From Thermodesulfobacteriota bacterium (GTDB lineage Bacteria; Desulfobacterota; Binatia; Bin18): a DNA stretch of 64,000 bases. Positions 1 through 64,000 of this stretch are shown piece by piece (positions within the stretch are counted from its first letter, which is position 1; each line of letters opens with the position of its first letter). Made by a program: the position numbers and the translations under genes. The stretch lies in NCBI GenBank assembly GCA_964291405.2, contig OZ219926.1:1376001-1440000 (forward strand), given 5' to 3'. The notes beneath the pieces were generated by a model. That model was not told the DNA's origin and did no database searches. It saw only the letters and a list, made by a program, of their open reading frames with translations.

Positions 1-2
1 TG

Positions 3-521
3 CTCGAAGCGGCCTTTGCCCTGCTGGAACGGCCGAGTGGACCGGTTCTCGTAGACTTCCCGGAGACGATCCAAAGCAGGGGTGGGGAGCCCTTAGAGTG
101 TCCGCTTCCGCCTCGTTACGATCCGAACCTGCACCCAGCCATTGACGAAGCACAAGCGTTACGCGCTGCTTACGACCGCGCTGTAGCGAAAACTGGGCGG
201 ACCAGTGTCGGCCGGGTGATCAATGCGGATCAGATTCCTGCCGCACTCGAGAAGTTCGTACGTATCGCCGAAGGGGAAGCCTGGGATCAGGTTGGGCTCG
301 AAGGGACGACTATGCAGGTCGTGCACGATATCCGGGCCTACTACGAAGAGTTGGCCTGCGAACTGGTAGTCGACGAGCCCATTCCGGCGTGGAGCGCTGA
401 GCGTTGGTTCTACGATAAAACCGAGGCCGGTAAGGTGTTGCTGACGGCACGCCGTACGCTGAAGGAGAGTGGGGCGAACCGTCCGATCTGGTTTTTCATG
501 GCCCCGGGCTCACGCCAGTAA
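3..521 (+). CDS. Partial (5' end outside window) protein resembling the C-terminal part of GrdB/PrdB-related (seleno)protein B-like proteins
   Basis: Frame is open from base 3 (LEAAFALLERPSGPVLVDFPETI...CPLPPRYDP) into the listed 216..521 ORF; family resemblance is from recall only. Confidence 0.5.
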   Translation, partial: LEAAFALLERPSGPVLVDFPETIQSRGGEPLECPLPPRYDPNLHPAIDEAQALRAAYDRAVAKTGRTSVGRVINADQIPAALEKFVRIAEGEAWDQVGLEGTTMQVVHDIRAYYEELACELVVDEPIPAWSAERWFYDKTEAGKVLLTARRTLKESGANRPIWFFMAPGSRQ

Positions 522-575
522 AGCCGTCCGTAGTGGACATCGGGTAAAGATTTTTTACAGCGAAAGGAGCGGTGT

Positions 576-1418
576 ATGAAGCTGAGTATTAACGTGCGGA
601 ATTGGGGTCCTCATTCGACCGCTGACATCATGCTCGAATGTGCCCATGCGGCCGATGAGTCCGGACTTGATACGCTCTGGATTAACGAGCATATTGCGAT
701 CCCACCGAATCTCGAAATGCCAGGCGGCTTCCCTGATTTCTCAGAAGGACGGGTTCTCGATCCGTTTGCGACTCTCGCATTCCTCGCCTCGGCGACAAAA
801 CGGATCGGCTTAGGTACGGCCGTCATCCTCCTCCCCTACCGCCCCCCGCTTCCAACGGCAAAACTCGTCGCAACGGTCCATGAACTGTCGGGCGAACGTT
901 TGCGTTTGGGTGTGGGCGTGGGCTGGATGAAAGAGGAATTTCAGGCCCTCGGGGTCGACTACAGTCGGCGCGGGGCAATGACGAACGAAACCTTAGCCTT
1001 TATCCGCCAGTGTTTTGATGGGGACGATATAACTGAAGCGAATGGGCAACCCTTTTTATTTCGGCCCCGTCCCGCCTGCCCCCCAATTTATGTTGGGGGT
1101 GCACCACCGCATAGCCTTGAACGCACGGTAAAATACGGTCACGGCTGGATTCCAGCCGGTGTCGAGGCGGAAGTCCTCAAGCCCGATATTGAAAAGCTGC
1201 AACAGCTGGCAAAGGAAGCCGGCCGCTCGGCGCTTGAAGTGGTTGCCATGAAAACCTTGCCCATCGATGACCCACCAAAGGCGATCGACTACGCGAAAGG
1301 CTTTGCGGAGGTAGGCGTGACCCATCTTGTCCATACCCAAGGGTACGAGAGTGCGGCTGAATATCGACAGAATATCGCTGTTCTCGAAGAAAGAATTCGA
1401 CCAGCTTTAGCCGACTAA
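576..1418 (+). CDS. LLM-class, probably F420-dependent, oxidoreductase (Rv2161c-like)
   Basis: LWINEHIAIP, DPFATLAFLA, GVGVGWMKEEF, PPIYVGG; AAAGGAG RBS. Confidence 0.9.
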   Translation: MKLSINVRNWGPHSTADIMLECAHAADESGLDTLWINEHIAIPPNLEMPGGFPDFSEGRVLDPFATLAFLASATKRIGLGTAVILLPYRPPLPTAKLVATVHELSGERLRLGVGVGWMKEEFQALGVDYSRRGAMTNETLAFIRQCFDGDDITEANGQPFLFRPRPACPPIYVGGAPPHSLERTVKYGHGWIPAGVEAEVLKPDIEKLQQLAKEAGRSALEVVAMKTLPIDDPPKAIDYAKGFAEVGVTHLVHTQGYESAAEYRQNIAVLEERIRPALAD

Positions 1419-1635
1419 GGAAAAGGTTCTGGGAGAGCCGGGCACGACGGGGGCAGTCTTCTTCGAGACCGGATGCGGCAATCGCGCAGAGGGTATCGAG
1501 GTCAGACATCAGTGCGCTCTGACGATGGATCTCGCTGGTTGCGCGGGGATCTCTGAGACGGCGAGCGCCGTTCAGGGTGGACCCTGAGGAGTATTCCACG
1601 TCGCCTCCCGAATACCTCAAACCCTCAGGATGATC

Positions 1636-2031
1636 TTAGTCCATAGCGATGGCTGATATTTCAAACATAGCCCCCGGAGCATAGAGCCCGGTCACTCCAT
1701 GCAGCGCACTACCCGTAGGGGTAGAATCGCCAAAGGCTTTAGCGAGCACATCTAAATTCGCATAAGTTTGTGGCACATCAGTAGTGTATATGAAGTAATG
1801 AACAACGTTAGATAGATTCATGTCAGCTTCTTTCAGAACACGTTCCACATGGTCTATTGCCATGGCCATCTGTGCGCGCATATCACCGACGTGGCAAGGT
1901 TCTCCTGTCTCTTCGTCCATCGCAACTTGGCCAGTAACAAACACAATTCGGGTATAGTCCTCTATGATCTCTCCCTGAGGAACTCCAAGGTTTTTGAAAA
2001 AGGGGGATATAGTGATAGGGGTTCTCTTCAT
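1636..2031 (-). CDS. RidA/YjgF family protein
   Basis: VFVTGQVA, MRAQ, FEISAIA; start reassigned to MKRTP after AAAGGAG; visibly AT-richer than neighbours. Confidence 0.85.
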   Translation of the reverse strand: MKRTPITISPFFKNLGVPQGEIIEDYTRIVFVTGQVAMDEETGEPCHVGDMRAQMAMAIDHVERVLKEADMNLSNVVHYFIYTTDVPQTYANLDVLAKAFGDSTPTGSALHGVTGLYAPGAMFEISAIAMD

Positions 2032-2357
2032 TATTCTTACTCCTTTCCACCTCAATGATAGGCGGTATCTGTTTTCAGAATCGAAGCACTGAGAACTGGA
2101 GATAAATATCATAAGGGCATGGCGTCTGCGAGCAGCGACTAAACATCACCCAGTGCTCGTCCTGGGCGTCCACCTCTCCCCTGTCTGTTGTCACCTGTGT
2201 AGGCAGTGAGACTTTCCCATGGGAATACATGCCCTCACAGCGGCGTCAAAAATGAGCCGTGCTTAGTTTGCAACCAGGACGGCTTCCTATCGGAGAGTCG
2301 ATAAGATATATCTAGGCAACCTGAAAACCGACGTAGGATCATAGAGGATGGAACACC

Positions 2358-4019
2358 ATGACGAACACGACTCAACAGCCACACGGAAACGGATCGCTTG
2401 AATACTGTGACGCCGTCATCATCGGAGCGGGCGTTGGCGGCATGTACGCCTTACACCACCTGCGCGAAATGGGCCTGTCAGTGCGCGTGTACGACGGCGC
2501 CGGCGGTATCGGCGGAACCTGGTGGTGGAACCGCTACCCCGGTGCACGGGTCGATGGTCCGGGCAGTCCTTTCTACTGCTACACCTTCTCGGAAGAGCTG
2601 GTGCGGGAGTGGGACTGGGCCGAGACCCAGCCAAGCCAAGAGCAGGTACTGGACTACCTTGAGCACGTGGCCGACCGGCTCGACCTGCGCCGCGACATCC
2701 AACTTGAGACCTGGATACGCGACGCCCGTTATGACGAAGCGGTCCAGCGCTGGACAGTTGAGACCAGCGGTGGCGAGCGTGTCTCGGCTCAGTTTTTGAT
2801 CTGCGCAGTCGGCACCCTCTCGGCGGCCCACAAACCCGACTTCCCTGGACTCGACGATTTTACCGGTGAGTGCTACCACACCGGCCGCTGGCCGCAGGAA
2901 CCTGTTTCTTTTGAGGGCAAACGCGTTGGCGTGATCGGGACTGGCTCCTCGGGGGTACAGGCGGTTCCTGTAATCGCTCGCGAGGCCGCACACCTGACGG
3001 TGTTCCAGCGCACACCGCAATACAGCATCCCGGCACGTAACCGTCCCCTCGAGCCTGAGTTAATGCAGTACGCCCGCGAAAACTGGGACGAAGTCCGGGC
3101 GAAAATGAACGCCCATCCCGTAGGCATGCCGTTCGAGACCACCTCGCGCTTGGGTATCGAGGACACCCCCGAACAACGCCAAGCGCTCTACGAGGATCTG
3201 TGGCAGAAGGGCAGCTTCAACCTCCTTTTCGGCAGCTATGCCGACCTCCTGACCAATAAGGAGACCAACCGCACGCTGGCCGATTTTATACGCGGTAAGA
3301 TTCGCGAGTGCGTGAAGGACCCCGAGATTGCCGAGAAGCTGATGCCAGACTACTATCTGGGCACCAAGCGCCAGATCCTCGATAATGGCTACTACGAAAC
3401 CTTCAATCGCGATAACGTCACTTTAGTAGACTTACGCGAAGACCCAATTCAGACGGTCACTGCAACAGGTGTACGGACTGAGACCGGCGACCATCCGCTC
3501 GATATGATCGTGATGGCAACGGGCTTCGACGCCATCAGCGGCACTCTGCTGCGCCTCAACCCCAAGGGGCGTGGCGGCGTCGGCCTCAAGGAGAAGTGGA
3601 GCAGTCGCTTCGATAACTACCTTGGTATGGCGATTGCCGACTTCCCCAATCTGTTTATGATCCATGGCCCAGGCTCACCCTCAGTGCTCTATAACATGCC
3701 GCTCGGTGCCGAGCGCGAGACGGAGTGGATCGGCAACTGCGTGCAATATCTACGCGAACGTGGTCTGGGTGCCATCGAGGCGACGCCGGACGCTGAGAAA
3801 GACTGGGACAAAGAGGTCAACGAACTCGCCAACGAGACGCTCTACCCCCTCACTGACTCCTGGTACACAGGCGCCAATATCCCAGGCAAGCCCCGTCAGT
3901 TCTGCGTCCACCTGGGTGGTCCGCTGTACTTTCAGCGCATCTCTGAGGCTGCCGCCAAGGGCTACGAGGGGTTCGTGTTTGAGGAGGAGAACAACGTAGA
4001 CGTCTCCGCCGCGTCCTGA
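2358..4019 (+). CDS. Type I Baeyer-Villiger monooxygenase (CHMO/PAMO-like)
   Basis: GAGVGG, GGTWWWNRYPGARVD, FTGECYHTGRWP fingerprint, GTGSSG, ATGFD, SWYTGANIPGKPR. Confidence 0.95.
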   Translation: MTNTTQQPHGNGSLEYCDAVIIGAGVGGMYALHHLREMGLSVRVYDGAGGIGGTWWWNRYPGARVDGPGSPFYCYTFSEELVREWDWAETQPSQEQVLDYLEHVADRLDLRRDIQLETWIRDARYDEAVQRWTVETSGGERVSAQFLICAVGTLSAAHKPDFPGLDDFTGECYHTGRWPQEPVSFEGKRVGVIGTGSSGVQAVPVIAREAAHLTVFQRTPQYSIPARNRPLEPELMQYARENWDEVRAKMNAHPVGMPFETTSRLGIEDTPEQRQALYEDLWQKGSFNLLFGSYADLLTNKETNRTLADFIRGKIRECVKDPEIAEKLMPDYYLGTKRQILDNGYYETFNRDNVTLVDLREDPIQTVTATGVRTETGDHPLDMIVMATGFDAISGTLLRLNPKGRGGVGLKEKWSSRFDNYLGMAIADFPNLFMIHGPGSPSVLYNMPLGAERETEWIGNCVQYLRERGLGAIEATPDAEKDWDKEVNELANETLYPLTDSWYTGANIPGKPRQFCVHLGGPLYFQRISEAAAKGYEGFVFEEENNVDVSAAS

Positions 4020-4122
4020 GCGCCTCAGAACGTCGACCCGGGCGCTACCCTATACCGATCCGCTTTTGTGGAAGGGCGTCTTGGATTCAGCCGGTTAGGG
4101 GTACAGGGGCCCGCGCCCTTTT

Positions 4123-4776
4123 CTAAACCTCAAAGCGTGCCTGCATCCGCTCCCACCACTTGCCCAAAGACGGGGCAGAATCAAACAGCGGTTCGTCGCT
4201 GACCCGGGTGATCCAGGTGAAGGTGCCGAAAAGACAGAAATCAGCATAGGTTAAAATCTCAAACAAATATTCGTGCCCTAAAGCGACGGCCTCAAGGTCG
4301 GCGAGGACAGATTTGAAGCGTGGACGAAATTCGTCGCGCTTGGCGGCAATATCTTCGAGCGTTGCGCCCAGCCGCGCCTCGAAGTTTTCGCGGAAATAGG
4401 CGCGATCGACCGGCTCGATCTTTTCAAAGACGTCGTACACCACGACCGGAAAGAACGCTGGATGCAGCGTGGTGTCGACATATATATTAAAAAACCGGCA
4501 GGCCTTTTTCATGCCAAGGACAGGAAAGAGCTTGGGCTCTGGGTGCTGCTCTTCCAAATACTCTGCGATTTTCCACGAATCGGAAACAACCGTGCTGTTA
4601 TCTTTGATGACCGGCACACGCTCCTGGTTGGAGAAAGTCAGCTTGTCTTTATCACAAAACCGAATTGGTACAGTGGTATAATCCAGGTTCTTATAGCGCA
4701 GCGCGGCTTTGGTACGGGCACAGAATGGACTGCAGCGCAGGTCATTTGCTCCAGTGAGATCATAGACTTCGATCAT
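4123..4776 (-). CDS. Glutathione S-transferase family protein (beta-etherase LigE-like N-terminus)
   Basis: YDL...SPFC, VPVI, DSWKIAEYLE, YADF. Confidence 0.8.
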   Translation of the reverse strand: MIEVYDLTGANDLRCSPFCARTKAALRYKNLDYTTVPIRFCDKDKLTFSNQERVPVIKDNSTVVSDSWKIAEYLEEQHPEPKLFPVLGMKKACRFFNIYVDTTLHPAFFPVVVYDVFEKIEPVDRAYFRENFEARLGATLEDIAAKRDEFRPRFKSVLADLEAVALGHEYLFEILTYADFCLFGTFTWITRVSDEPLFDSAPSLGKWWERMQARFEV

Positions 4777-4844
4777 TGGGTTTCCCCTCTCTCATATCTC
4801 TAGCGCTTTTCGTCATCGCCAAAAAAAGAGAAGAAGTCAAGGAG

Positions 4845-4876
4845 ACGGGTGGTGGTACAGGTGTACCACCACCCGT
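4845..4876 (-). terminator. Intrinsic terminator-like hairpin
   Basis: Perfect 14-bp stem ACGGGTGGTGGTAC/GTACCACCACCCGT with 4-nt loop; pyrimidine/T-rich tract follows on the minus strand. Confidence 0.6.
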
Positions 4877-5065
4877 TCGCATTTGCCTCTGTAAATTTGT
4901 ACTATGCAATCGTAATCTGGTCGCAGACAGCTTCCTTGGGGGACGGTGTCAGACGGCAAGGAGTTGCAGCGGGTACGGGTTGTGTGCGGCGGCCTCATTG
5001 TCGTTCGAAGGTACGGGGCCGCTCATGCGATTGCATGAATTGAATGATCCGGAGGGTAGAGACTG

Positions 5066-5449
5066 ATGAACAGGAAACATGATGCGGGAGTTGCGAAGCA
5101 CATCGGTACGTACAGCGATGCGGTAGAGATTGATTCCGCACAACGCATTCTCTATGTGTCCGGTACCCCCGGTATTGATGCGGACAGTGGCCACTTGCCG
5201 GACGACTTCGCCGAGCAGGCGGATCTCGCCTGGCGCAACGTCGTGAACATTCTCAAGCGGGCGGATATGGGTGTTGAAGATATCGTCAAACTGACCCAGC
5301 ATCTTATTCGGCGGGAAGACTTGAAAATCTATCGAGAAATACGATCACGGTATTTGGGGACGTGCGCTCCAGCCTCAATGCTCACCCTGCTCCCCGGTCT
5401 CGTTTGGCCGAATATGCTGATCGAGCTGGAGGTCGTGGCCGCGAAATGA
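5066..5449 (+). CDS. RidA/YjgF family protein
   Basis: YSDAV, LYVSGTPG, EQA, IR, PASML, IELEVVAA. Confidence 0.9.
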   Translation: MNRKHDAGVAKHIGTYSDAVEIDSAQRILYVSGTPGIDADSGHLPDDFAEQADLAWRNVVNILKRADMGVEDIVKLTQHLIRREDLKIYREIRSRYLGTCAPASMLTLLPGLVWPNMLIELEVVAAK

Positions 5450-5840
5450 AGCCAGGAAGGCACTGTCAAGTTTTCGGAGGGAAAGCACGAAATTCACTTA
5501 CTGTGATATAGAGTTAGAGTCCTTTTTACGCAGACATCCGATCCGTTGTCGCCGCACGCCAGGTCATAAAGACCCGTTCTCGAAACAGCCGCTAGTGGGC
5601 TACCTCCAAGAGATAGCGTCCAGTCCGAAAGAGACTGAGGCATTCCATGATTACTGCACCTCGAAGCGACCCATCACAAGGGTCCAACAACTTTCCTCCA
5701 TGGAAGTTTATGTCGTGTATCCTCGCAAACCCTCTATGTGCATAATAACTAAACGCTCATATGATAATCTCCTTGCGACGGGGCCGCCCTCCCCTGACTG
5801 AAATCGACCGGCTGATCGAATTTGGGAACAGGCCGCAACG

Positions 5841-7137
5841 CTAGAGAAACCGACTCCGGAGTCGAGCGAGCGGTTGGAGGACAAATCGAGATGCGCCTTC
5901 CATAACACGCTTACTCCGGACTGGCTTGAGATCACGCAGAGGAAAGGCGCATTCTTCCGGATTGTCTGCGACAAACATGTTGGCGACCTGGCGGCCCATC
6001 TGGGTGCCTAACACAATGCCATTGCCGCAGTAGGAATTCGCCGCATACAGGCCAGGGGCAAGAGAGTAGAGGTGGGGGAGAATGTCGGTATTCATCGCAA
6101 TCTGGCCAAAATGGACGTAGCGCCACGCGGGAAGGGCCACCGTGGGAAAAATGCGCTTGAATTTGTTGGTAAATTGCGCGGCCACTTTTTCGGGCTCGAA
6201 AGAGGGAAGGGCAAGCGCGGCGGTACTGGTTCCAAGTCGCCCTTCCGTATCCACTCGTAGGCTGAAAATGTTTGAATAGTCAACGTCGATAAAGCCGCCA
6301 TCCTTCGGCAGCAGTGCGGCACCCTTATCAGGCAGTGGATCAGTCGCAACAAAAGCTAAGGTCCAACGAATAAAGCTGTTCTGCAGGCCCGGCCATAAAC
6401 CTTGCTCATACGCATTTGTCGCCAACAAAACTCGACTGGCCAAAACTGAGCCCTTGGGGGTGAGCAGCTTCCAACGATCTCGCTGCTGCTGAAGCGATTG
6501 CACCGGGCTATTGCTATAGACGTGGACGCCACAGCTCTGAGCAGCGCGGGCCAGTCCCCGCACGTACGATAACGGGTTGATCAAGCCGCTATTCACCACA
6601 CGCATACCGTGCCTATAGCGATCGGTCGGTATCACTTCAGCCAGCTGCGCCGCGTCAAGGATTTCAATCGGATGATCGTATGCCGCCCATTCTTCGGCCT
6701 CAGTTTCGAGCGTATCGCGCATGCGGTCAGTCAGAGACGCGTAGACATGGCCCGTTGTTCGATAATCACACGCAATCTGATACCGCTGGGTTAGTTCATA
6801 AATGTAGCGGCCCTTCAGGGGCAAGGCGATTGAGCCGTTGTCCGCGCTCCTCACCGCCATTTGACGATCTGCGACGGCGGTGTATGGAACCACCAGTTTG
6901 GACACACCCAGCTGCACTGCGTCCTGACGCTCCCCAGCCGGGCTGGCCTGCGTCTAATAGTGCGACGCTCTTACCCGCAGCGGCCAGATGGAGAGCTGCG
7001 GAGCAGCCCGTGTATCCAGCCCCGACAACGGCAACCTCGACATCGCCGTCTCCATCAAGCTGCCGGGCATCTGGTGCGGGTATCGCTGTTTCCAGCCAAA
7101 CGCTTTTGTCTCGATTGTCCCACGCTGAGATATCCAT
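5841..7137 (-). pseudogene. FAD-dependent oxidoreductase (DAO/PuuB-like), frameshifted
   Basis: N-terminal VVGAGYTG...GASGRS in ORF 6796..7137; the body (INPLSY, ATNAY, YCGNGI) is in ORF 5841..6917; several frame changes at about 6805-6915. Confidence 0.85.
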
Positions 7138-7394
7138 AGGTGCACTCCAAAAAAGCTATAGCGATACTCACTTCATCCGCCACACACGGTGTGCCTCACT
7201 ACGATGTAACTTTGACTCCCGTCCGGCCAATAGAAGGGTATTGCACGGCATACCGTCCGCTGCCGTTCTTCGCTTGCTGTCGTCCCTGTTCTTCACGTTC
7301 GCTAAAGCAGTGTCAAGCTCAGGAACAACACTCCCCTAGCAATGGGACATCTTCCGCAGTATTTTCCATTCATTCAAATTGATCAGAGGATCTT

Positions 7395-8582
7395 ATGCGA
7401 ACGAGTCAAGATAGCATTCTTACCACCCACGTTGGCAGCTTGCCGCGCAGCGAACCGCTGATGCGTATGCTGCTCGATAAAGAGCAGGGCAATGCGCTGG
7501 ATGAGGCGAGCTTTGAGTCTCAAGTCAGGGACGATCTGGCTTTCATCCTGCAAAAACAGCGTGAAGTGGGCATTGATATCCCAAACGATGGCGAACTGCC
7601 GCGTCTGGGTTTCTCGTTTTATGTTAAAGACCGCATGACCGGTTTTGGCGGCCATGCCCAGCGGGGCACGGTGACCGATTTTGCTAAGTTTCCAGGCTAT
7701 GTCGCGCTCAAGACGGGCCGCCCGGCTGGTGAAGAGATCAAACAGAGTGCCACCATGTACGACATGCCCGAATGTCAAAGTGCCGTGCTGTATGATGCTG
7801 AGAAACGCGTTGCCCACCAGGAACTACGACTGTTCAGCGAGGTATTAAACAATGATAATGCAACGGCCGAGACGTTTGTCACCGCCGCCACACCCGGTAT
7901 TGTCTCGACCACGCTGTTGCGGAATGCAGACAATCCCGATTACGCCACTGACCGTGATTATGTGCTCGCCCTGGCCGAAGAACTCCGCCACGAATACGAG
8001 CTGATTGTTGAACAGGGCCACATTCTGCAGCTGGATGCTCCGGACCTGGCGATAGAGCGTCAAATCATGTTTCTCAATCAGCCGCTGGACGCGTTTCTCA
8101 AGCGGGTTGAGCTGCACATCGAGGCCATCAATGCTGCCTTGGTGAATATCCCGCGTGACCGGGTGCGTATGCATGTGTGCTGGGGCAACTGGGACGGGCC
8201 GCATATCGACGATATGGACTTGGAGCCGCTTTTGCCGCTTCTCTATCAAGCCAAAGTTGGCGGACTGAGTATTCCGTTTGCCAATCCCCGCCATCAGCAT
8301 GAAGTGAAGCTCTTCAAACGCTATCCCCTACCGTCAGACATGGTCCTGATTCCCGGTCTCATTGACGTGACGACGAACTACCTCGAACACCCCGAAGTGG
8401 TCGCCGACCGAATTGAGACGATCACGAATATTGTTGGGGATCCAAAGCGAATCATCGCTGGCACAGATTGTGGCTTCAGCACCTTTGCCGGTTATGTTAT
8501 GGTTGCGCACGATGTGGTGTGGGAGAAACTGCGGATGTTGTCAGAAGGCGCCAAGCTTGCCACCGCGCGACTGTTTTCATAG
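7395..8582 (+). CDS. Cobalamin-independent methionine synthase II family protein (MetE C-terminal-like / EaCoMT-like)
   Basis: TTHVGSLPR, DGE, QLDAP, HVCWGN, ANPRH, EHPEVVA, TDCGF. Confidence 0.9.
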   Translation: MRTSQDSILTTHVGSLPRSEPLMRMLLDKEQGNALDEASFESQVRDDLAFILQKQREVGIDIPNDGELPRLGFSFYVKDRMTGFGGHAQRGTVTDFAKFPGYVALKTGRPAGEEIKQSATMYDMPECQSAVLYDAEKRVAHQELRLFSEVLNNDNATAETFVTAATPGIVSTTLLRNADNPDYATDRDYVLALAEELRHEYELIVEQGHILQLDAPDLAIERQIMFLNQPLDAFLKRVELHIEAINAALVNIPRDRVRMHVCWGNWDGPHIDDMDLEPLLPLLYQAKVGGLSIPFANPRHQHEVKLFKRYPLPSDMVLIPGLIDVTTNYLEHPEVVADRIETITNIVGDPKRIIAGTDCGFSTFAGYVMVAHDVVWEKLRMLSEGAKLATARLFS

Positions 8583-8625
8583 CCTTTCCAGTCTTCTCTA
8601 CGTAATACAATAAGGAGGAGGACCT

Positions 8626-9207
8626 ATGGAGCCCAGAAATCCAAGCCGTGAAGAGTTAGCGCAGCGGGTCGCTCGCTTTGACCAACTGCAACCCATGTCT
8701 ACGGCCAAAGAGCTTGCCGACATACCCCAGGAGGCGATGGACATCATTTTTGCCCGCACGCTCATGCCGGTGATCCTGGAAAAGACAAAAAATCCGTTCG
8801 GCGATACGGCCGCGATTTATGGCGCAGCAGGTACCACGATGAACGTCTCGGTCTGCCCGCCAGACCAGGGGCCGTGTCTGCACTCCCATAACCACACCTA
8901 TGAAACCTTCATGGTACTGGACGGTGCGTTTGAGTTCAGCGTGGGTGATGACGGCCAAGAAAAAATCATCCTGAACAAATGGGACGTCTTTTCCTGTCCG
9001 CCAGGCATGTACCGGGGCTTCAAGAATGTGGCCGACACTGACAGTGTCTTGCTGACGGTCATTACTGGGGCGGTGCATGAACGCGACGACGTATCGGTCC
9101 CACCCCAAGTGACCGAACAAGTCCGTGACGGCTATGGCGAAGAGGTGCTCAACGCGTTTAAGAAAATCGCCACGTTCAACGAGCGCGATGAAGGCGAACA
9201 GGCATAA
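8626..9207 (+). CDS. Cupin domain protein
   Basis: LHSH...ETF, PPGMYRGFKN; AGGAGG RBS; co-oriented with the MetE-like gene. Confidence 0.85.
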   Translation: MEPRNPSREELAQRVARFDQLQPMSTAKELADIPQEAMDIIFARTLMPVILEKTKNPFGDTAAIYGAAGTTMNVSVCPPDQGPCLHSHNHTYETFMVLDGAFEFSVGDDGQEKIILNKWDVFSCPPGMYRGFKNVADTDSVLLTVITGAVHERDDVSVPPQVTEQVRDGYGEEVLNAFKKIATFNERDEGEQA

Positions 9208-9242
9208 GCGCAAGCCGTATTAGGAAGAGAAGCAACGAGACT

Positions 9243-9423
9243 TAGAGCAAATTACGATTCCGTGTAGCCCTTCGACTTCAGGCGCGTTGCGCCTGCCGCT
9301 CAGGACTAACGGTCTGCCGTTCGTGCTGAGCGTAGCGGAGCGAAGTCGAAGCAGGGATGCCGGAGCGCGTCCGACATGACGAGCACGTAACGGCAGGGCT
9401 ACAGCCTATAGTAAAACGCTCTA
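9243..9423. mobile_element. MITE-like element with internal REP-type palindrome
   Basis: Imperfect terminal inverted repeats TAGAGCAAATTACGATTCCGTGTAGCCC and (reverse complement) TAGAGCGTTTTACTATAGGCTGTAGCCC, each starting with TA; internal CTTCGACTTC...GCTCAG...AACGG/CCGTT...CTGAGC...GAAGTCGAAG. Confidence 0.65.
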
Positions 9424-9527
9424 AGCGAGTAGGGTTACAACTGCCCTGCTCATACCCGCGACATAGGCCGCCCTGCTTTCGGCACTCAGTACCAAGCCGG
9501 TCGATACACAGCTCAGAACAAACGCCA

Positions 9528-10056
9528 CATCCCGCGCAGCATGACCGGGAAGCCTCCCTCCCGATCGAGAACTACGAAGCGCTGAAACGGGAGGGGTTCT
9601 ATGAGCTGACCATCCCCACGAACTTTGGAGGTGGGGGCGCGGGTTTGCTGGACTGGGTGCTGGCCGTCGAGGAGCTGGCCCAAGGGTGTCCGAGTACGGC
9701 CCTCAGCTTCACCATGCATGCCGCCGGGGTGCGGATTCTCATCGACACGCCCACGACTCCGCCGGCCGCCAAACAGCGCATCGCCCAGCTGGTTGCCAAG
9801 GAACACAAGCTGTTTGCCTCCGCTTTTACGGAACCAGGCTCTTCTAGTCTCCTGATCGGCCTGCCCTTTGTCCCGAGCGTCCAAGCCCGGCGAGTCGACG
9901 GTGGGTACATGTTGCAAGGCCGCAAGGCGTTTACCTCGATGGGGGAAGCCAGTGATTATCTGATGCTCATGGTCCATCCGCAGAAATCATCCAATCCCCT
10001 GGAGATGCTGATGCTCCTGGGGCCGTATCCTGCGCCCGGCCTGCGGGTGGAGCATT
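9528..10056 (+). pseudogene. Acyl-CoA dehydrogenase internal fragment
   Basis: HDREASLP..., IPTNFGGGG, EELAQGCPSTAL...MH, TEPG, GRKAFTS; lacks start and the whole C-terminal domain. Confidence 0.85.
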
Positions 10057-10435
10057 TAATGCAGCCATTGACGCTTTGATACATGCCCCAGAGAAAGTAT
10101 CGGATTGCTTCGCTGAAGATGTCCTCTGGATTAACTATGTGCCGCAGCATCTGCCTTATGGTGGTGAGTACAGGGGACTTGATGAACTGGCTAAGCTTTT
10201 CGCTCAATATATGGCAGCGCTCGAAATTGGAAAGCTTGAGTTCGATGAATATTTTGTCACTGCAGACAGTGTTTTAATTGTGACGGGGAACGAATGCGAG
10301 AGTCGGGTGAAATCAACCGGAAAGCATTACACTATGCCGTTTGTTTGGGTTGTCCGTTTTAATGAACATGGAAAAATCAACTATGTACGCGAATATAATG
10401 ACACGTACCCGATGGCAGAAGCATTCAAAGCCTAA
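10055..10435 (+). CDS. NTF2/SnoaL-like protein, probably 5'-truncated (TTG at 10076 is the only candidate start)
   Basis: FAEDVLW, PYGGEYRG, TGKHY, VREYNDT; abrupt shift to AT-rich sequence at the junction. Confidence 0.75.
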   Translation, partial: FNAAIDALIHAPEKVSDCFAEDVLWINYVPQHLPYGGEYRGLDELAKLFAQYMAALEIGKLEFDEYFVTADSVLIVTGNECESRVKSTGKHYTMPFVWVVRFNEHGKINYVREYNDTYPMAEAFKA

Positions 10436-10544
10436 ACAGATCAACCAGCAACGTCCCATGTTAGCTCTGTCCAATTATCTGGCTCGAGTGCGAAATTCAC
10501 GCAGGCTGGATACCTGAACCGCGCAAACTCTGAGGAGGAAACCA

Positions 10545-11087
10545 ATGGGTAAACGAGTACGCCGGGTCCTTACCGGCCACAATGCCGACAACAAGTCCTA
10601 CATCATGGAGGACGGTCCCGCGCCGAACCACATGGAGATGGGCTCGATGGCCGGTCTCCTGGTCACCGATATCTGGGAAACAACCACCATGCCGGCGGAC
10701 AATAGCGGCAGTGCCGATAACGCCGACCGCCCCATTCGCCTCGAGCCGCCGCCGAACGGTACCATCTGCCGCGTGGTTGAATTTCCACCGGACTCGACGT
10801 GGAAGAACGATGCCTCCGGTCTCGAAGGATTCGATTCCATCGGCGCCGGGCACGCGGTCAGTAGTGACAGCGACGATCCAATGATGCACGTCACGACCAC
10901 CACGGACTACGCCATCGTCCTCGAGGGCGAAGTGTGGGCCGTGATGGACGAAGGCAAGACCTGCCTCAAGGCCGGCGATATCCTGGTCCAGCGCGGCACG
11001 ATGCATTCGTGGTCGGTGCGAACGGATCAGACCGCGCGTGTCGCTTTCGTCCTGGTGGATGCTGCACCACTGCCCCATCAGAAATAG
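10545..11087 (+). CDS. Cupin domain protein
   Basis: VRRVLTGH, MHVTTTTDY, LEGE, GDILVQRGTMHSW. Confidence 0.9.
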   Translation: MGKRVRRVLTGHNADNKSYIMEDGPAPNHMEMGSMAGLLVTDIWETTTMPADNSGSADNADRPIRLEPPPNGTICRVVEFPPDSTWKNDASGLEGFDSIGAGHAVSSDSDDPMMHVTTTTDYAIVLEGEVWAVMDEGKTCLKAGDILVQRGTMHSWSVRTDQTARVAFVLVDAAPLPHQK

Positions 11088-11240
11088 GCTGCGTGCAATT
11101 CTCCCAGAGCATCAAGATCGCGCGACCGTGTGACGGTACCGTTTGACGAGCAACCGGACAGAAAGTGTACTCAAGAAGAGTGGCGACCAGAGCGTTCTGC
11201 CAGACGACTCTTCCTTTCCCCCCAAAGTCGCCTATGAACC

Positions 11241-12074
11241 TCAGCCGCCGACTGGCCCAAGTGGAACGGGACCGGTTGGGGGATACGAGCCGTCTGTGTC
11301 GTGCACTTCCTGACCGGTCAGCGGTGGGTCGAATACGCTAATGCCGTGAAAATCGCTCAACGCTTTGACGTGATGGCGGTCTTTCGGCCCGACCACATAC
11401 AGGCCGCCGGGACCGATAATATGCACGGCTCCGGTGGCGGAATCGGTCACCTCAAGCGTGCCGTCTAGCACCACGTTTGCTTCCCAGTGGTGTTTGTACC
11501 ACAAGTCTGCTTCCCCGCCCGCTTGCAGGCGGACCGCCGAAAAGGAGAACCCGAGCTGGTCGGCGGCGGTCAAATAGCGGGCCGTGATGGCGACGCCGCC
11601 CGCGATCACCCGCTCCAAGCCCGCATTACGAACATCGGCGAGAGTTCTGACGAACATGCGATCCTGACCTTGAGGAGCATCACCCGTTGGGGGATAGGAC
11701 CCGTCTGCATCGTGGGTCTCATTGCCTTCGAGCGGCGGGGAGAAGACACTGATGACACGCAGGTCTGATGGTTCCTCACAGATGATGCGATGTCGGTCCT
11801 GAGGACCAACGCAATAGAGCACGTCGGGTTCGAGGGGCCAGCGTTCTTCCGTGGCCCGGTTCTCCAGGGTGGCGTTTCCCGAATACACGTAGTTGGCCTC
11901 CCAGTGGTGTTTGTACCAGACATCCAGTGATCCGACCTGCTGTGTCCGGGCTTCAGACACGCTAAACCCGAGTCTATCGGCTTTGGTGAGCAGACGGACG
12001 GCCGTCGCTTTGCCGTGGGCAATCGAGATAACCCGATCATCGGCTTCCAGTTGGTTCATCGTACGAATCAGCAT
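11241..12074 (-). CDS. Tandem double ectoine-synthase (EctC)-like cupin
   Basis: Two repeats, each with LGFS, WYKHHWEAN, YxVGPxDRH, SVFxPPLxGxExHDxDGSY. Confidence 0.85.
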   Translation of the reverse strand: MLIRTMNQLEADDRVISIAHGKATAVRLLTKADRLGFSVSEARTQQVGSLDVWYKHHWEANYVYSGNATLENRATEERWPLEPDVLYCVGPQDRHRIICEEPSDLRVISVFSPPLEGNETHDADGSYPPTGDAPQGQDRMFVRTLADVRNAGLERVIAGGVAITARYLTAADQLGFSFSAVRLQAGGEADLWYKHHWEANVVLDGTLEVTDSATGAVHIIGPGGLYVVGPKDRHHVKALSDFHGISVFDPPLTGQEVHDTDGSYPPTGPVPLGPVGG

Positions 12075-12190
12075 AGTGGTCCCCCTTTGATGGACTCGGT
12101 ACGAACTGGTAGCAGGTTAGGGAAGTCGGGATAGTCGATTTCCGTGATTTTTGTAATCGTTGTGTCGCCGACTTTCCATTTGAGATTCGT
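12068..12190 (-). pseudogene. N-terminal stub resembling an MBL-fold metallo-hydrolase
   Basis: AAGGAGG RBS followed by ACG in place of ATG, then NLKWKVGDTTITKITEIDYPDFPNLLP. Confidence 0.5.
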
Positions 12191-12202
12191 ATCGACCTCC
12201 TT

Positions 12203-12239
12203 TTTTCACGGCATTCGCGTATTCGACCCACCGCTGACC
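12203..12239. repeat. 37-nt inverted copy of 11316..11352
   Basis: 36/37 identity to the reverse complement of part of the EctC-like gene. Confidence 0.95.
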
Positions 12240-12254
12240 TTGTTGGGAAATACC

Positions 12255-12902
12255 CTACGAGGGGTTTTGCTTTCCCCAGCGATCAAAATGCGTCAGCTCT
12301 TCTGCTGGCCGGCGCGTAATGGGTCCGAACTTCCCTTGAGGGAAACCAATGGGAATGAGCGCAACCGCCCCATAGTTCTCAGGGATACCAAAGTGGTCAT
12401 GCAGCTCTTCTTCAAAGAACATCTGGGCCGTGGTCAGGGTGGCACCCAGACCCAATCCGCGACACGCCAGGAGAATATTCTGCACGCAAGGATACACGGA
12501 GCCGTAAGATGGAGGTGCTTTGCCCACCCGCTGATCCGGGGGTACGGCTGCCGGCCAATCTCTTAATCCGGAGCAGAGGAGCAAGACCGGCACTTCGTGC
12601 ATATGTTCGGACAGATACTGAGCCGCACGACCCATCCGGGCCTGCGAAGAAGGGTCCCCCGGCGCCGGCTGCATTGTGCCAAAGCGGGAGGCTACAGCCC
12701 GGTGGTAGCGCTCTTGTATGAATTTCTTGCCCTCTGGATCCTGCACGACCAAAAACGCCCAAGGCTGAGTGTTTTGCCCGCTGGGAGCTTTTGTGCCCGC
12801 CTCCAACACTTTGCGAATCAGCTCTAAAGGAACCGGGTCCGGCTTGAGCCGTCGCATCGCCCGCATCGTGTTCATCGTCTCAAAAAGGTCTATCTCCGGC
12901 AT
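12255..12902 (-). CDS. Nitroreductase family protein
   Basis: RAMRRLKPDPVP, APSGQNTQPW, QNILLACRGLGLG; start MPEID after AGGAGG. Confidence 0.9.
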   Translation of the reverse strand: MPEIDLFETMNTMRAMRRLKPDPVPLELIRKVLEAGTKAPSGQNTQPWAFLVVQDPEGKKFIQERYHRAVASRFGTMQPAPGDPSSQARMGRAAQYLSEHMHEVPVLLLCSGLRDWPAAVPPDQRVGKAPPSYGSVYPCVQNILLACRGLGLGATLTTAQMFFEEELHDHFGIPENYGAVALIPIGFPQGKFGPITRRPAEELTHFDRWGKQNPS

Positions 12903-12936
12903 GGGTACTCCTCCTTCTGTCCTTTTTGCGTTCTGC

Positions 12937-13194
12937 CAAACCATCGTCATCACCGGCATGGCAACTAACTACTGTTGCATGACGACATCCATCGACACTT
13001 TTAATCGTGATTACGACGTGATCTTCGTCGACGATCTCAATTGCACGATAGCTTCGAGCGACGGGACAGACGCCGCGACGATGCACCGCATCACGGTTGA
13101 GACGCTGAAGGACGGCTTCATCTCCGAGTTGGTTACCGCCGACGATCTCCTAGCGCGGCTCGACGCCGACACCGAAACACGCGCTGCCGTCTGA
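12937..13194 (+). pseudogene. Isochorismatase/cysteine hydrolase C-terminal fragment
   Basis: TIVITGMATNYCCMTT..D...RDYDVIFVDD; no N-terminal half. Confidence 0.8.
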
Positions 13195-13242
13195 TCGGTA
13201 TTGGACTCGTCCCGGACCTGCTGGTGGCGCAAATCGGCTGCA

Positions 13243-13518: not shown

Positions 13519-13521
13519 GCA

Positions 13522-14109: not shown

Positions 14110-14124
14110 TGATGAGTCGTCTTT

Positions 14125-16602: not shown

Positions 16603-16642
16603 GGTTTTTCTCGTGGGTGAGCCTCTGGATCCAGTCACGAGT

Positions 16643-17667: not shown

Positions 17668-17683
17668 ATAAGGAGGGGACATA

Positions 17684-55814: not shown

Positions 55815-56007
55815 GAGATTTCTCCTTTGTGTTACGACAGCCACATTGCTGGGTCCAATTCAAATAGACCGGGCAGCAAAAACGGGGAATGACCGGTATT
55901 CCCCCCGCCACATTACCCGTACTCTCAGTGGACAACAATCCGGCAGACACCGAATGGGTCTATTGATTTGATGAGGGTAAAGTCGGATGAACAAAGCTCA
56001 ACACCGC

Positions 56008-56034
56008 CAAGACTTCTTTGTCTCCAAAGGATAT
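56008..56034 (+). promoter_or_regulatory. Duplicated leader core, copy 1
   Basis: CAAGACTTCTTTGTCTCCAAAGGATAT, 26/27 identical to 56970-56996. Confidence 0.7.
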
Positions 56035-56087
56035 ATCATCTGCTTAATGTGTGAACGAAGAGCCGAAGTGCATAAGGGAGGATCGGT

Positions 56088-56933
56088 ATGAGTGTCCTGG
56101 ATGGACCGCGGACAGAATGGCGTCGGATTTTGCACGAAGGCCAGCCCAAATGGGTCAAACCGGACGGCGACGGGCTGCTGCTGGGCGATGGCCGGGCGAT
56201 TCATGAGGCCGAGGCCGCCTATCTGCCGCCGTGCGAACCAAGCAAGATCCTGTGTATTCACCTGAATTATGAATCGCGCCGGGCCGAGTTCCGCGTCCCA
56301 CCGATTGAAACGCCCACGTATTTCCAGAAGCCGACAACGGCGCTGAACAGCCACCGGGGCTCCCTCGTGCGTCCGCACGACACGAAGTATCTCAACTACG
56401 AAGGGGAGGTGGCGGTGATTATTGGGAAACCGATGCGCAACGTGGGCCGCGCTGAGGTGTGGGAGTATATCGCGGGCTTTGCGCCCGGTAATGACGTGGG
56501 GAGCCAGGACTTTCGCGATACGGATGCGGGCTCGATGCTGCGCGTCAAAGGGATGGACGGCTTTTGCCCGATTGGCCCAGGCGTCGTGAGTGGGGTGGAC
56601 ATTCGCCAGGCCACGCTCCGGACCTACCTCAATGACACGGTCGTACAGGAAGGCGCTCTGAGTGAGATGATCTTTCCGATCGACTATATCCTGGCCGATC
56701 TGTGTCGCTATATCACGCTCCTGCCTGGAGATGTGATTATGTCGGGCACACCCAGAAACTCACGCCCAATGAATGTTGGGGATCTCGTCGAGGTTGAGGT
56801 TTCCGGTTTGGGGCGACTCTCGAATCGGGTCGTCGAAGCGCCAGCACCCCCATATCAGGTTGGGCATCAACCGACCGACACCGATGCCGTCCGCCGCGTC
56901 GCCTTAGGGTCGGATTGGCGGCGTGAGAAATGA
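56088..56933 (+). CDS. Fumarylacetoacetate hydrolase family protein
   Basis: FQKP, YEGE, ND, KG.DGFCPIGP, LLPGDVI.SGTP. Confidence 0.92.
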   Translation: MSVLDGPRTEWRRILHEGQPKWVKPDGDGLLLGDGRAIHEAEAAYLPPCEPSKILCIHLNYESRRAEFRVPPIETPTYFQKPTTALNSHRGSLVRPHDTKYLNYEGEVAVIIGKPMRNVGRAEVWEYIAGFAPGNDVGSQDFRDTDAGSMLRVKGMDGFCPIGPGVVSGVDIRQATLRTYLNDTVVQEGALSEMIFPIDYILADLCRYITLLPGDVIMSGTPRNSRPMNVGDLVEVEVSGLGRLSNRVVEAPAPPYQVGHQPTDTDAVRRVALGSDWRREK

Positions 56934-56969
56934 TGAAAGCGAGATCGGGCTGATGAAGCTCGACCCCAT

Positions 56970-56996
56970 CAAGACTTCTTTGTTTCCAAAGGATAT
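56970..56996 (+). promoter_or_regulatory. Duplicated leader core, copy 2
   Basis: CAAGACTTCTTTGTTTCCAAAGGATAT. Confidence 0.7.
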
Positions 56997-57051
56997 GTTA
57001 CCTCGTAGCGTTTGAATGAAGAGCTGAGATTGAAGAAGGAGGACTGCGAGA

Positions 57052-61690: not shown

Positions 61691-61796
61691 GCAGAACCAA
61701 TCAATAAAAGTCGGAACCGTCGAGTGACCGCCAGGGGCAAGCCGCCGCGCGCCAAGGTTCCCCGGAAGGAACGCCCGACGCGCGGCATATTCTTGT

Positions 61797-62786
61797 TTAA
61801 CCCAGATGGGGGAGGACGTCGGCGGCAAAGCGCTGCATAGACCCCCGCGACACAGCGCGATCCATGCCGGGGAAATGGAAGAACAGCACGAGTTCATCTA
61901 TGCCCGACTCAGCTTCAAACGCTTTGATCTCATCGAGCACCTTTTGTGGTGGGCCGGTGAAGAAATTACTCAGGTCACGGAATCCATCAGACGTATTCGT
62001 GCGGTCTTCTGGTTTGTCATTGGCTTCATGCATCCACTTGGCGTAATAATCGACCTGGTAGTTGACGTGCGGCCAGACTTTATCTAACTCGCTGTCGTCT
62101 TTTTCGGTCACATAGCACGAACGCAGGATGCGGACCTGGCCGGGCTCGCGGCCGAGGTCGGTACAGGCCGTCCGGTAAATATCAATGTCTTCGGTGTTGC
62201 CAATGGGCAGAAAATGACAGCCCATGCGTGCCACGCGCTGAATGCCTTTTTCGCTCCGCGCCCCAACCATCAGGGGTGGCCCTCCAGGCTGGGCTGGGGA
62301 TGGCGTGACCATAATGTCGGTGTAGTTCCAAAACTTCCCAACATGAGAAAATGTTTCCCCAGACCACGACTTGCGGAGGATGTCGACACCTTCGGTCAGC
62401 GCTGAGCCTCGTCGCTTGTGATCCTTTTCAAAGCCTGTAAACTCGCCTACGCGATAGCCCTGGCCCAGGCCAAGAATGAGCCGGCCTCGCGAAATGAGAT
62501 CGACGACCGCTGCGTCTTCGGCGACACGAACGGGGTCGTGCAGGGGGAGGAGTAAGACGAAGGTGCCGAGACCGATGCGCTGTGTTCTGGCAGCCACCGC
62601 TGAGAGGACGGCGAGCTGGGAGGGGAGATAGCCATCCTCAAGAAAATGGTGCTCCGTCGTCCACGCGGTATCAAAGCCGAGCTCTTCAACGGCAACCATA
62701 TCGTCGATGGTATCGTTATACAGGTCGGCGTAGGGTTGCGCCCATTGGGGCGGATTCCGAAAGTCAAATAAACAGCCTGTCTTCAT
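61797..62786 (-). CDS. LLM-class flavin-dependent oxidoreductase
   Basis: WTTEHHF.EDGY.PS, P.RVAEDAAVVDLIS.GRL.LGLG.GY. Confidence 0.92.
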   Translation of the reverse strand: MKTGCLFDFRNPPQWAQPYADLYNDTIDDMVAVEELGFDTAWTTEHHFLEDGYLPSQLAVLSAVAARTQRIGLGTFVLLLPLHDPVRVAEDAAVVDLISRGRLILGLGQGYRVGEFTGFEKDHKRRGSALTEGVDILRKSWSGETFSHVGKFWNYTDIMVTPSPAQPGGPPLMVGARSEKGIQRVARMGCHFLPIGNTEDIDIYRTACTDLGREPGQVRILRSCYVTEKDDSELDKVWPHVNYQVDYYAKWMHEANDKPEDRTNTSDGFRDLSNFFTGPPQKVLDEIKAFEAESGIDELVLFFHFPGMDRAVSRGSMQRFAADVLPHLG

Positions 62787-63002
62787 TACCTTGCTCCTTT
62801 CGTCAGGGCGAAAATGTTTGGTCTTGCTTGAATAGACGAGGTCTCGTGTCCACGACGGGCCGGTGGGCCTACATGTGAGCGGGAGTCGTCAGAATAAGAC
62901 GGGAATCCTCCAGCCCATCATTCCGATAATGGACAATGGCCCGATGGTCGGGGTTCTGCACCAGTTTCCCTTTCTTCCAGCGACCTCACACGATGCACGG
63001 CC

Positions 63003-63998
63003 TTATCCGAGTGTATTCACCGCAGATGGGAACGTGTTGATCCCCAGCGCTTCCCGAAAATCCGCGGTGGGTTGCACGACCATCGCATCGACGCTGATGC
63101 CAATCGCATTGGCGACGCGGTCCAGCATGCTGAAGTTGCCGCCGATGATCGACGCCGTCGTGACCGCCTCGGGACCTAATCGCTCGGCAATGGCATCCCG
63201 TGCGGCCGCCAGTTCTGCGGTATCGGGTTTCATCAAAGCACCGGCGAATCTCACGAGTTCGCACCCGTGTTCCACCCCGCTGTCAATACGTGCATCGATC
63301 GCGCCAGCTAACTCGTAGCTTCGATCGTGGGCTTTTCCGCTCTCCCGGAGCAGATGGGCATGCCACGTGGTTCAGTAGAAACACAGGTTCTGTTCCGAAA
63401 CCTTGGTTGCGACGAGTTCTATCTGTGCTCGCGAAAGTGCGTGGTCTGATGTGGCGTGAAAATTGAGCAAATGCTCAGCTCCGAAATACTGTTGACTGAC
63501 CAGGTTAATCACGCGGCGGGCTTCATCCGGGACGAGGCTCACGGCGCGAAAAATATTCCCCGCCGGACTTTCTCCATATAACGATTCGGCTAATGCGCCA
63601 CCTGCCGGAGCGCTGGGGACACTCGCGGTAAAGAATCCCTCATCGACGGCTTCGGCGGGGCGTTCGAAAGAGGGGAGCGTATCGTCGGCGAGCTCCGGTA
63701 ATTTTCGGGGTGGTATGCCAAGACCGCGGGCAAAGACGTCAAGATTGGAGAGTCGCGACACCAGCGAGACGATTTCAACATACGCGCCCTCGCTCACACC
63801 CTGGGCTTGGATGTTCTGGCAAAACTTGCGATCGATGTTTTGCGAATCAACCGCCACCGCCCGTGCCAATCGCACTGCCGCGTCAGGGAGTTTGGCCTGG
63901 GCGACCAGCTTCTCATCGTCGACCGATTCTTGTAAGCCCTGTTCGCATTGAGCGATACGCGCAGTGGCGGCAATGGCGGTTCTCTGTGCGGCGGTACC
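63003..63998 (-). CDS. AhpD-like alkylhydroperoxidase-related selenoprotein (partial; in-frame UGA at 63372-63374)
   Basis: ORFs 63372..63875 and 63003..63275 are in the same frame, joined by 32 stop-free codons: LSRAQIELVA..VS..NLCFY-UGA-TTWHAHLLRES; frame is open to the window edge. Confidence 0.8.
63336..63354 (-). promoter_or_regulatory. Candidate bacterial SECIS hairpin
   Basis: UCUGCUC-CGGGA-GAGCGGA; apical loop begins 24 nt after the UGA and has G at position 2. Confidence 0.6.
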
Positions 63999-64000
63999 CC

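Follow-up and report, generated by a model that had tools for sequence, protein, structure and literature searches.

The 64,000-nucleotide stretch analysed here (the window; G000:C3:1376001-1440000) comes from an uncultured, sponge-associated member of the Binatia, and we read it as the core of a ~120-kb gene-turnover hotspot in which genes for small-molecule enzymes and a few toxin-antitoxin (TA) or defence modules are acquired, lost, duplicated or relocated singly or a few at a time without a dedicated recombinase. We give this reading a probability of about 0.6. The hotspot is of a known kind in bacterial gene exchange and represents no new cassette machine. Rare illegitimate events that do not need RecA (deletions, tandem duplications and insertions) would create new junctions, duplication followed by loss would reorder genes, and homologous recombination in flanks or repeats that co-resident close relatives have in common may pass the resulting variants between them. 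The zone may tolerate such turnover since its genes are individually dispensable stand-alone units.

The host genome (G000) is a metagenome-assembled genome (MAG) of 4.95 Mb with 57.8% GC in three contigs, 97.5% complete with 4.6% contamination. Cumulative GC skew was flat from 1.1 to 2.9 Mb, and the window lies at neither origin nor terminus. Twenty-three sequencing runs from 17 studies, mostly sponge metagenomes, held the window; an excerpt of Murphy et al. (2021, PMC8262859) describes one Binatota order as sponge-associated and the phylum as encoding multiple ladA-type (LLM) genes. Genes were called with a codon-usage caller trained on the genome's long open reading frames (ORFs). Families were assigned with Pfam on the window ORFs and NCBIfam on 33 ORFs or frames, and gaps were searched for remnants with Pfam on 195 stop-to-stop frames (at least 35 aa) and by blastx against the own proteome. 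Twelve congeners were drawn, all 12 of which held matches to the window, and regions of 80-120 kb from seven of them were compared by local megablast (~90-97% identity).

Gene order and content differ among congeners

The comparison with the seven congeners divided the window into two parts, within which the following segments are of importance.

1-27291: reshuffled sub-zone, blocks 92-99% identical to those of congeners, in another order and with many gene-sized indels
7447-10504: G000-specific segment with a MetE-like gene, a cupin, a miniature inverted-repeat transposable element (MITE), an ACAD stub and a low-GC SnoaL gene
28558-64000: accessory backbone, collinear for the most part (ilvD, LLMs, ACADs, BVMO, GSTs), in which single genes are present or absent here and there
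28818-30500: ilvD
34897-36241, plus strand: CmcJ/NvfI-family oxidoreductase unit (NCBIfam)

Overall collinearity with G004, at ~95% identity, covered the window and 27 kb on either side (to 91 kb from the window's start). Inside this frame G004 carried the left-hand blocks, in window coordinates, in the order 1-1411, 1627-2048, 5691-7446, 10505-12105, 2344-5506, 13239-14870, 20583-21917, 19267-20194, 16983-17295, 17520-18870, 15248-16624 and again 16983-17295. Across the seven comparisons 4 of the 24 displaced blocks were inverted and all four were the CmcJ unit, that is, one distinct unit against about 11. The 436-aa ORF of this unit (34920-36230) had been suspected of being a transposase, having no Pfam hit and lying in a unit that is inverted in relatives, and was assigned by NCBIfam to the CmcJ/NvfI oxidoreductases; a 92.5% identical paralogue lies 47 kb to the left.

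Content varied as well as order. Presence/absence in the right half concerned the cupin gene at 48894-49340, the FAA hydrolase gene at 56088-56933 and the genes from HicAB to NnrU, and relatives carried extra segments of 1-13 kb at 27290, 52650 and 56940. At a threshold of 85% identity, about 8.6 kb of the window was unmatched throughout the seven regions, and about 6.4 kb occurred in every one of them. Among 201 Binatia genomes, including 16 congeners, with two candidates scored per genome, nothing matched the segments 7447-10504 and 12109-13231 at more than 72%. At the place of the first, G004 has just 431 bp with an SDR N-terminal stub; from species to species, unrelated content and different stubs occupy a given inter-block site. 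These data bear out the hotspot of gene-sized turnover around ilvD claimed in a preliminary description of the window, since block order differs among the seven congeners over 1-27 kb. They do not extend it over the whole 64 kb as that description did: gene order, whose conservation would have spoken against a hotspot, was changed over 1-27 kb and mostly conserved over 28-64 kb, which is mostly collinear and vertically inherited. Serial acquisition or overwriting, also proposed there, is borne out in part; capture from afar does not agree with the native codon usage and paralogues described below.

Turnover was also compared with two control regions, each aligned with G004. The focal 160 kb gave 47 blocks, 25 indels of at least 300 bp and 8 non-collinear adjacencies (80% aligned). 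Control A (180 kb) gave 39 blocks, 9 indels and 7 non-collinear adjacencies, mostly from one 27-kb translocation (93% aligned), and control B (180 kb) gave 36 blocks, 15 indels and 1 non-collinear adjacency (78% aligned). Turnover is genome-wide, and the studied zone is ~2-3-fold hotter.

The corresponding zones of the relatives contain direct repeats of 150-2024 bp with 88-100% identity, spaced 0.8-9 kb apart, for example one of 576 bp (100%) in G004 that flanks the amidohydrolase gene and the next block, one of 2024 bp (99.4%) in G001 and one of 1351 bp (100%) in G011. Among 60 representatives of the relatives' zone-specific genes there were three transposase ORFs and no integrase; the remainder encode further LLMs, P450s, a Rieske protein, CoA-transferases, an RND pump, TA pairs, DarTG and a type I restriction-modification (RM) system. 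Such repeats, together with the kept orientation of displaced blocks, suit a recombinase-free 'paralogue nursery', in which recurrent local tandem duplication and random loss would reorder and multiply stand-alone enzyme genes with their orientation kept, single-gene units with unit-specific bracketing repeats would loop out and re-enter relatives in a RecA-dependent, Campbell-type manner, the amidohydrolase would be caught in mid-sweep, and the locus would feed the very large LLM, BVMO and GST families of sponge-associated Binatia. We regard this as possible but doubtful, and the gene remnants of G000 described below weaken duplication and loss as the main engine in G000.

Exchange of the amidohydrolase block between species

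17520-19202, plus strand: Amidohydrolase_2 block (gene 17684-18829)
19203-26621: 7.4-kb segment with SDR, ABM, TetR, DUF4440, LLM, PEP-mutase-family gene, reductase and DUF1329

Pairwise identity of the amidohydrolase block among seven genomes had a median of 99.5% and a minimum of 99.0% (range 99.0-99.9%), against medians of 91.5-97.5% for eight other blocks and 97.1% for ilvD; the identities of the other blocks shared by these species range over 89-98%. What adjoins it on the left varies: G001 and G005 have the whole SDR gene there, G000 and G002 each a different SDR fragment, G004 part of an NtaA gene, and G010 and G011 other sequence. These identities indicate that the block has recently spread between species and that close relatives exchange at least one unit, and the pattern looks like a gene-specific sweep across species. 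An amidohydrolase unit that has recently passed species boundaries may be under strong selection in sponges. On its right side, the last 44-48 bp of the block run straight into the sequence of 26622-26773 in four relatives, so that G000 carries the 7.4-kb segment between these points.

Within this segment, a 25-nt region containing ribosome-binding site and start is near-identical (24/25 nt) in the unrelated DUF4440 gene (21523-21547) and NAD-binding reductase gene (23922-23946).

Gene remnants and deletion scars

5841-7155, minus strand: DAO-family FAD oxidoreductase pseudogene
9357-10079, plus strand: ACAD stub, N and M domains only (Pfam, NCBIfam)
12871-13191, plus strand: isochorismatase C-terminal stub, profile positions 114-160 of 175
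16995-17295, minus strand: NtaA/DmoA-family LLM stub, last ~100 aa (NCBIfam)
17294-17516, plus strand: SDR internal piece, 74 aa
26416-26606, plus strand: DUF1302 remnant, aa 409-472 of a 591-aa paralogue (blastx against the own proteome)
26624-26830, minus strand: FAD/NAD(P)-binding oxidoreductase N-terminal remnant, with a 43-aa piece near 26631-26760 (gene of 465 aa, intact in G001)
27893-28557: 665-bp MITE-like insertion that splits a SnoaL_4 ORF of 317 aa
43324-43407: HsdM remnant, last 28 aa, matching the 708-aa HsdM of G002

At least 12 junctions holding stubs of eight named kinds had been described. Six of these were recovered (ACAD, isochorismatase, NtaA, SDR, FAD oxidoreductase and HsdM), MBL and PIN remnants were found neither by Pfam/NCBIfam on gap frames of at least 35 aa nor by blastx against the own proteome, and the total comes to about 9-10 scars. 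The ACAD stub adjoins the SnoaL gene at 10076-10435 (44% GC), and unitigs of two runs bridge this junction.

NtaA is intact (447 aa) in G001, G002, G010, G011 and one G004 copy, and is a longer ORF (464-521 aa) in G005 and G006. The 313-bp NtaA block had been considered a conserved stub with fixed edges in all species; the relatives have the whole gene, and the block is a G000 deletion scar. An intact SDR gene occupies the 17294-17516 site in G001 and G005, and G000 itself has a complete copy 55 kb to the right (G000:C3:1448137-1448359) that matches its piece at 99% identity. NtaA, SDR, the FAD oxidoreductase and HsdM are intact in relatives and fragments in G000, indicating that most G000 stubs are deletion scars. 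Correspondingly, the erosion named earlier as the alternative to acquisition is also at work. The DAO pseudogene, a second form of FAD oxidoreductase remnant besides the N-terminal piece, has lost 1, 2 and 2 nt at three places outside homopolymers relative to an intact 439-aa ORF in G004. DUF1302, the operon partner of the adjoining DUF1329, has been deleted.

Can deletion erosion explain the locus on its own, with a larger ancestral island whittled differently in each species and nothing acquired? G000 lacks 6-13 kb present in at least three relatives at 27290, 52650 and 56940, its stubs are remnants of genes intact in relatives, its DAO gene is decaying and its coding density is low. But the segments 7447-10504 and 12109-13231 are without counterpart above 72% in the Binatia genomes searched, and the 665-bp element is inserted where the site is empty in G005 and G011. 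Moreover, the amidohydrolase block shows 99.5% identity between species in which its surroundings differ, and blocks are reordered besides being missing, with recent duplications in relatives. We therefore consider pure erosion unlikely.

Gene content and its standing in the genome

576, 21901, 31863, 33388, 36243 and 61797: six LLM genes (Pfam)
2358 and 57052: two BVMO-like genes (Pfam)
four GST genes, one weak (Pfam)
five NTF2/SnoaL genes (Pfam)
five cupin genes, one weak, including the double EctC-like gene at 11241-12074 (Pfam)
two RidA genes (Pfam)
two intact ACAD genes (Pfam)
20649-21380: TetR gene, the sole one in the window (Pfam)
63003-63275 and 63372-63998, minus strand: AhpD-related (CFYUT-type) selenoprotein gene, a single gene split by UGA (NCBIfam)

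The caller found 60-62 genes in the window, close to the ~55 described before, and Pfam recovered the recurring LLM, BVMO, GST, NTF2, cupin and RidA families as well as the single regulator. The minus-strand frames at 63003-63998 are one UGA-split selenoprotein gene and no scar or stub. Phmmer with window queries found ~172 LLM, 47 ACAD, 30 GST and 12 BVMO genes genome-wide. The six LLM genes of the window stand against 2.25 expected, and enrichment is ~10-fold for GST and BVMO; query choice biases the counts for NTF2 and cupin. The family enrichment in the window is real but modest.

Ranked against all 64-kb windows of its contig, the window had a coding density of 0.805 and a mean gene length that were both at the 4th percentile, and a singleton gene fraction of 0.55 (93rd percentile); the windows immediately to its left are sparser still. 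The alternating gene orientation and visibly different base composition noted previously proved to be ordinary for this genome: strand switching (0.38 per gene) was at the 73rd percentile, the spread of gene GC at the 88th and mean codon usage at the 51st, with the SnoaL gene at 10076-10435 (44% GC) and 21901-23872 (66% GC) as the clear composition outliers. Genes normally found in operons do stand without partners, as claimed for the Rieske alpha subunit, MMPL and DUF1329, but their paralogues elsewhere in the genome are equally solo, so that orphan status is the genome's style and no peculiarity of the window. A paralogue at 50% or more amino acid identity was present for 28% of window genes versus 14% of 700 random genes (Fisher p = 0.008), and many window genes have same-genome paralogues at 50-80% amino acid identity. 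Native codon usage and paralogue enrichment together indicate that most of the 'library' looks home-grown or exchanged among close kin.

It is quite unlikely that the window is a classical horizontally acquired island assembled from distant donors by mobile elements that later decayed. The few composition outliers, the two MITE-like insertions, and the three transposase ORFs and TA, RM and DarTG modules in the relatives' zones are in its favour. Against it stand the average codon usage and unexceptional GC spread, the many same-genome paralogues, the right half that is collinear across the genus, and the lack of an integrase and of any tRNA; scans of the window returned neither a tRNA nor an Rfam RNA.

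Two further features of gene content were observed. At 13246-14946 on the minus strand, a 273-aa ORF that belongs to no known family is followed by CyoD-like (COX4_pro) and CyoC-like (COX3) genes; genes for subunits I and II are missing from the neighbourhood, and the block is present in 7/7 relatives. The double EctC-like cupin gene lies for the most part, together with its upstream region, between the arms of a 37-nt inverted repeat (97%; 11316-11352 and 12203-12239).

Junctions, repeats and mobility genes

9243-9423, plus strand: 181-bp MITE-like repeat, with five other copies at 98-100% identity
37192-37430: cluster of repetitive extragenic palindromic (REP)-like dispersed repeats, at a block boundary; a second cluster at 39651-39751
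42600-44702, plus strand: 2-kb unit of HicB/HicA (42856-43313), HsdM remnant, DUF6364-like gene and NnrU
55969-57003, plus strand: FAA-hydrolase gene with bracketing repeats

The absence of an integrase was confirmed. The genome has three tyrosine recombinases (PF00589), none in the window and the nearest 244 kb away, and one match each to Y1, DDE_Tnp_1 and rve, again none in the window. Genome self-comparison returned 14 repeat pairs of at least 400 bp, none of which is an insertion sequence (IS) in the window, and the G000 interval yielded neither an integrase nor a transposase, a prophage or an integrative and conjugative element (ICE). One copy of the 181-bp repeat lies 34 bp upstream of the genome's sole Y1 (IS200/IS605-type) transposase match, a 113-aa open frame (G000:C3:981889-982333), and the short copies are probably miniature derivatives of this Y1 element. 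G005 and G011 lack the 665-bp element, their site being empty, and G000 has another copy of it, 98% identical, at G000:C3:4573084-4573745. The REP-like hairpin repeats occur in dozens of copies genome-wide and form clusters exactly in the variable inter-block spacers.

As described earlier, units are bracketed by direct repeats that differ from unit to unit, and two pairs were verified; the repeats are copies of neighbouring genes or leaders. The HicAB-NnrU unit is bracketed by ~90-nt direct repeats (42600-42686 and 44615-44702). At its place G004 has a 197-206-bp duplicate of the 3' end of the Rieske gene, and G002 (G002:C6:371947-381565) has hsdM, a BrnT-like gene, hsdS, DarT, a DarG-like macro-domain gene and a 1002-aa ORF; this spot is a small defence island of variable content. 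The FAA-hydrolase gene lies between two 73-nt copies of the BVMO leader that are 73% identical, and the genome has no further close copy. In G002, G006 and G011 the gene is absent and the BVMO leader is single.

At junctions of blocks that adjoin in G000 and are apart in a relative, there are 0-3 nt of overlap or 1-8 filler bases, and 10 nt of overlap in one case. The overlaps of 0-3 nt are little above chance expectation, and the microhomology-type process suggested at first was not supported. Neither Ku nor an ATP-dependent ligase domain was found in the 97.5%-complete genome, so classical non-homologous end joining is unlikely. Searching 113 junction clusters for a shared motif, k-mer enrichment left only the local AAGTTTA (5 junction clusters, Bonferroni 0.009) and one marginal 8-mer. 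AAGTTTA belongs to a palindrome-containing ~27-nt repeat with three copies within 2.4 kb at 42.6-45.0 kb and four looser matches (1-2 mismatches) elsewhere in the genome. A dif-like reading of this local repeat was tried and received no support from dif-type searches: the E. coli-type dif motif (the host's own dif may differ) had no match within 3 mismatches, and a loose dif core pattern gave 9 matches versus 3.5 expected, 3/9 being one local direct repeat. A crude attC pattern scan, of low power and run without positive control or covariance model, had 0 hits, both in the window and in 30 simulations. The description of the junctions as site-nonspecific agrees with these results, which yielded no common motif, integrase or attC-like site.

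Could there be a cryptic site-specific cassette system, integron-like, Xer/dif-module-like or new, with sites and an enzyme that escaped recognition? It would accommodate the block edges that recur at the same base in several comparisons, the two repeat-bracketed units and the junction-enriched ~27-nt motif. We consider such a system very improbable. Recurrent edges would also follow if one event in the G000 lineage were compared with each relative in turn, the motif is restricted to a single 2.4-kb spot, the bracketing repeats are unit-specific, genes face both ways, and the recombinase, crude attC and dif searches gave no support.

Assembly check

Junctions were checked against Logan unitigs of two runs, X18 and X19, which are from different studies (one may be the source) and hold 93% and 92% of sampled words with all 30 bins covered. 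Their unitigs, with 0-7 differences, bridge 9508-11043, 12074-13272, 14779-16032, 20791-23861 and 23832-26720, and thereby the junctions at 10076, 10505, 12105-13243, 14870-15281, 21917-23052 and 23875-26622. In a third run, X3, a joint from 15883 to 20588 reproduces the order of G010. Block depth in X18 was uneven (~32-57 versus 80-150, depths that sum all organisms in the sample), which fits several co-resident related populations sharing only some of the blocks.

That the mosaic and its stubs stem from chimeric joining of strain variants is suggested by the contamination of this MAG, by the 98-99% self-overlap of its main contig, in which two strains were merged, and by the uneven depth in the best-holding run, but it is hardly probable given the many junctions bridged in runs of different studies, the third run's alternative joint, and seven other assemblies, most in 1-6 contigs, that each have their own consistent order.

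Weighing the hotspot reading

Several observations weigh against a recombinase-free hotspot as set out above. The control regions are fluid too, and the excess of the studied zone, ~2-3-fold, comes from one comparator genome. Over 30 kb of the overlapping contig ends (1-29551 versus 4860337-4895696, 98-99% identity), four gene-sized indels separate the strains, one with a 7-bp direct repeat and two being replacements without homology; the circle was probably closed through two strain variants, with ~30 kb carried twice in the assembly. The comparisons with relatives are unrooted, and gains and losses are hence unpolarised. The relatives lack independence, and the 24 displaced blocks reduce to ~12 distinct units. 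Contamination is 1-8% throughout these genomes, all of them metagenome assemblies, and the duplications in relatives could partly be haplotype mis-joins. In G000, the unitigs listed end at repeat branch points by 17295 and 17516/17520, where bridging was not shown. The only stub with an intact copy in G000 is the SDR piece, whose copy is 55 kb off and inverted relative to it; the other stubs have none and are thus deletion scars rather than duplication joints, which weakens duplication and loss as the main engine in G000.

If the hotspot reading holds, the window would provide a base-resolved example of a mobile-element-poor symbiont lineage that keeps a fluid set of oxidoreductase and hydrolase genes, and junction stubs can serve as markers of illegitimate deletion.

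Comparison with known systems

Like integrons and clusters of attC sites lacking integron-integrases (CALINs), the locus gains, loses and reorders units of one to few genes in one place. Unlike them, it has no IntI, the crude low-power scan found no attC-like sites, 55% of its genes are singletons, and its units have their own upstream regions, run in both directions and meet at junctions inside genes. It differs from Xer/dif modules (pdif-type) in having no E. coli-type dif match within 3 mismatches (the host's dif may differ), from regions driven by IS or composite transposons in that no repeated IS copies flank window segments in the self-comparison, and from tRNA-linked genomic islands in lacking tRNA, integrase and deviant codon usage.

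Defence and TA islands are resembled at the 42.6-45.3-kb spot, which has HicAB, a VapB-like gene and the HsdM remnant, and where G002 carries type I RM and DarTG. In contrast to such islands, the spot is a small part of the zone and the bulk consists of catabolic and redox enzymes. With the models of tandem duplication-random loss and innovation-amplification-divergence, the locus shares kept orientation, direct repeats flanking 1-9-kb units in relatives and paralogue enrichment; it departs from them in that the G000 stubs are mostly deletion scars with no intact copy nearby and that G000 has no amplified array.

The closest known counterpart is the class of horizontal gene transfer hotspots free of mobile genetic elements (MGEs). 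In an excerpt of the study of Oliveira, Touchon, Cury and Rocha (2017, Nat Commun, PMC5635113), half of hotspots are without recognisable MGEs and 27% without any integrase or transposase, and double homologous recombination at hotspot flanks is proposed. The present locus shares with such hotspots accessory genes in one interval, fast turnover, the absence of integrase, prophage and ICE, and a proposed spread by homologous recombination with close relatives, of which the amidohydrolase block at 99.5% identity across species is the one indirect sign here; a turnover excess between conserved flanks and a lack of MGE genes in the interval were both found. It differs from them in that its blocks are reordered within the zone, its junctions often cut genes and leave stubs, its sisters carry fresh segmental duplications, and its host is an uncultured sponge symbiont.

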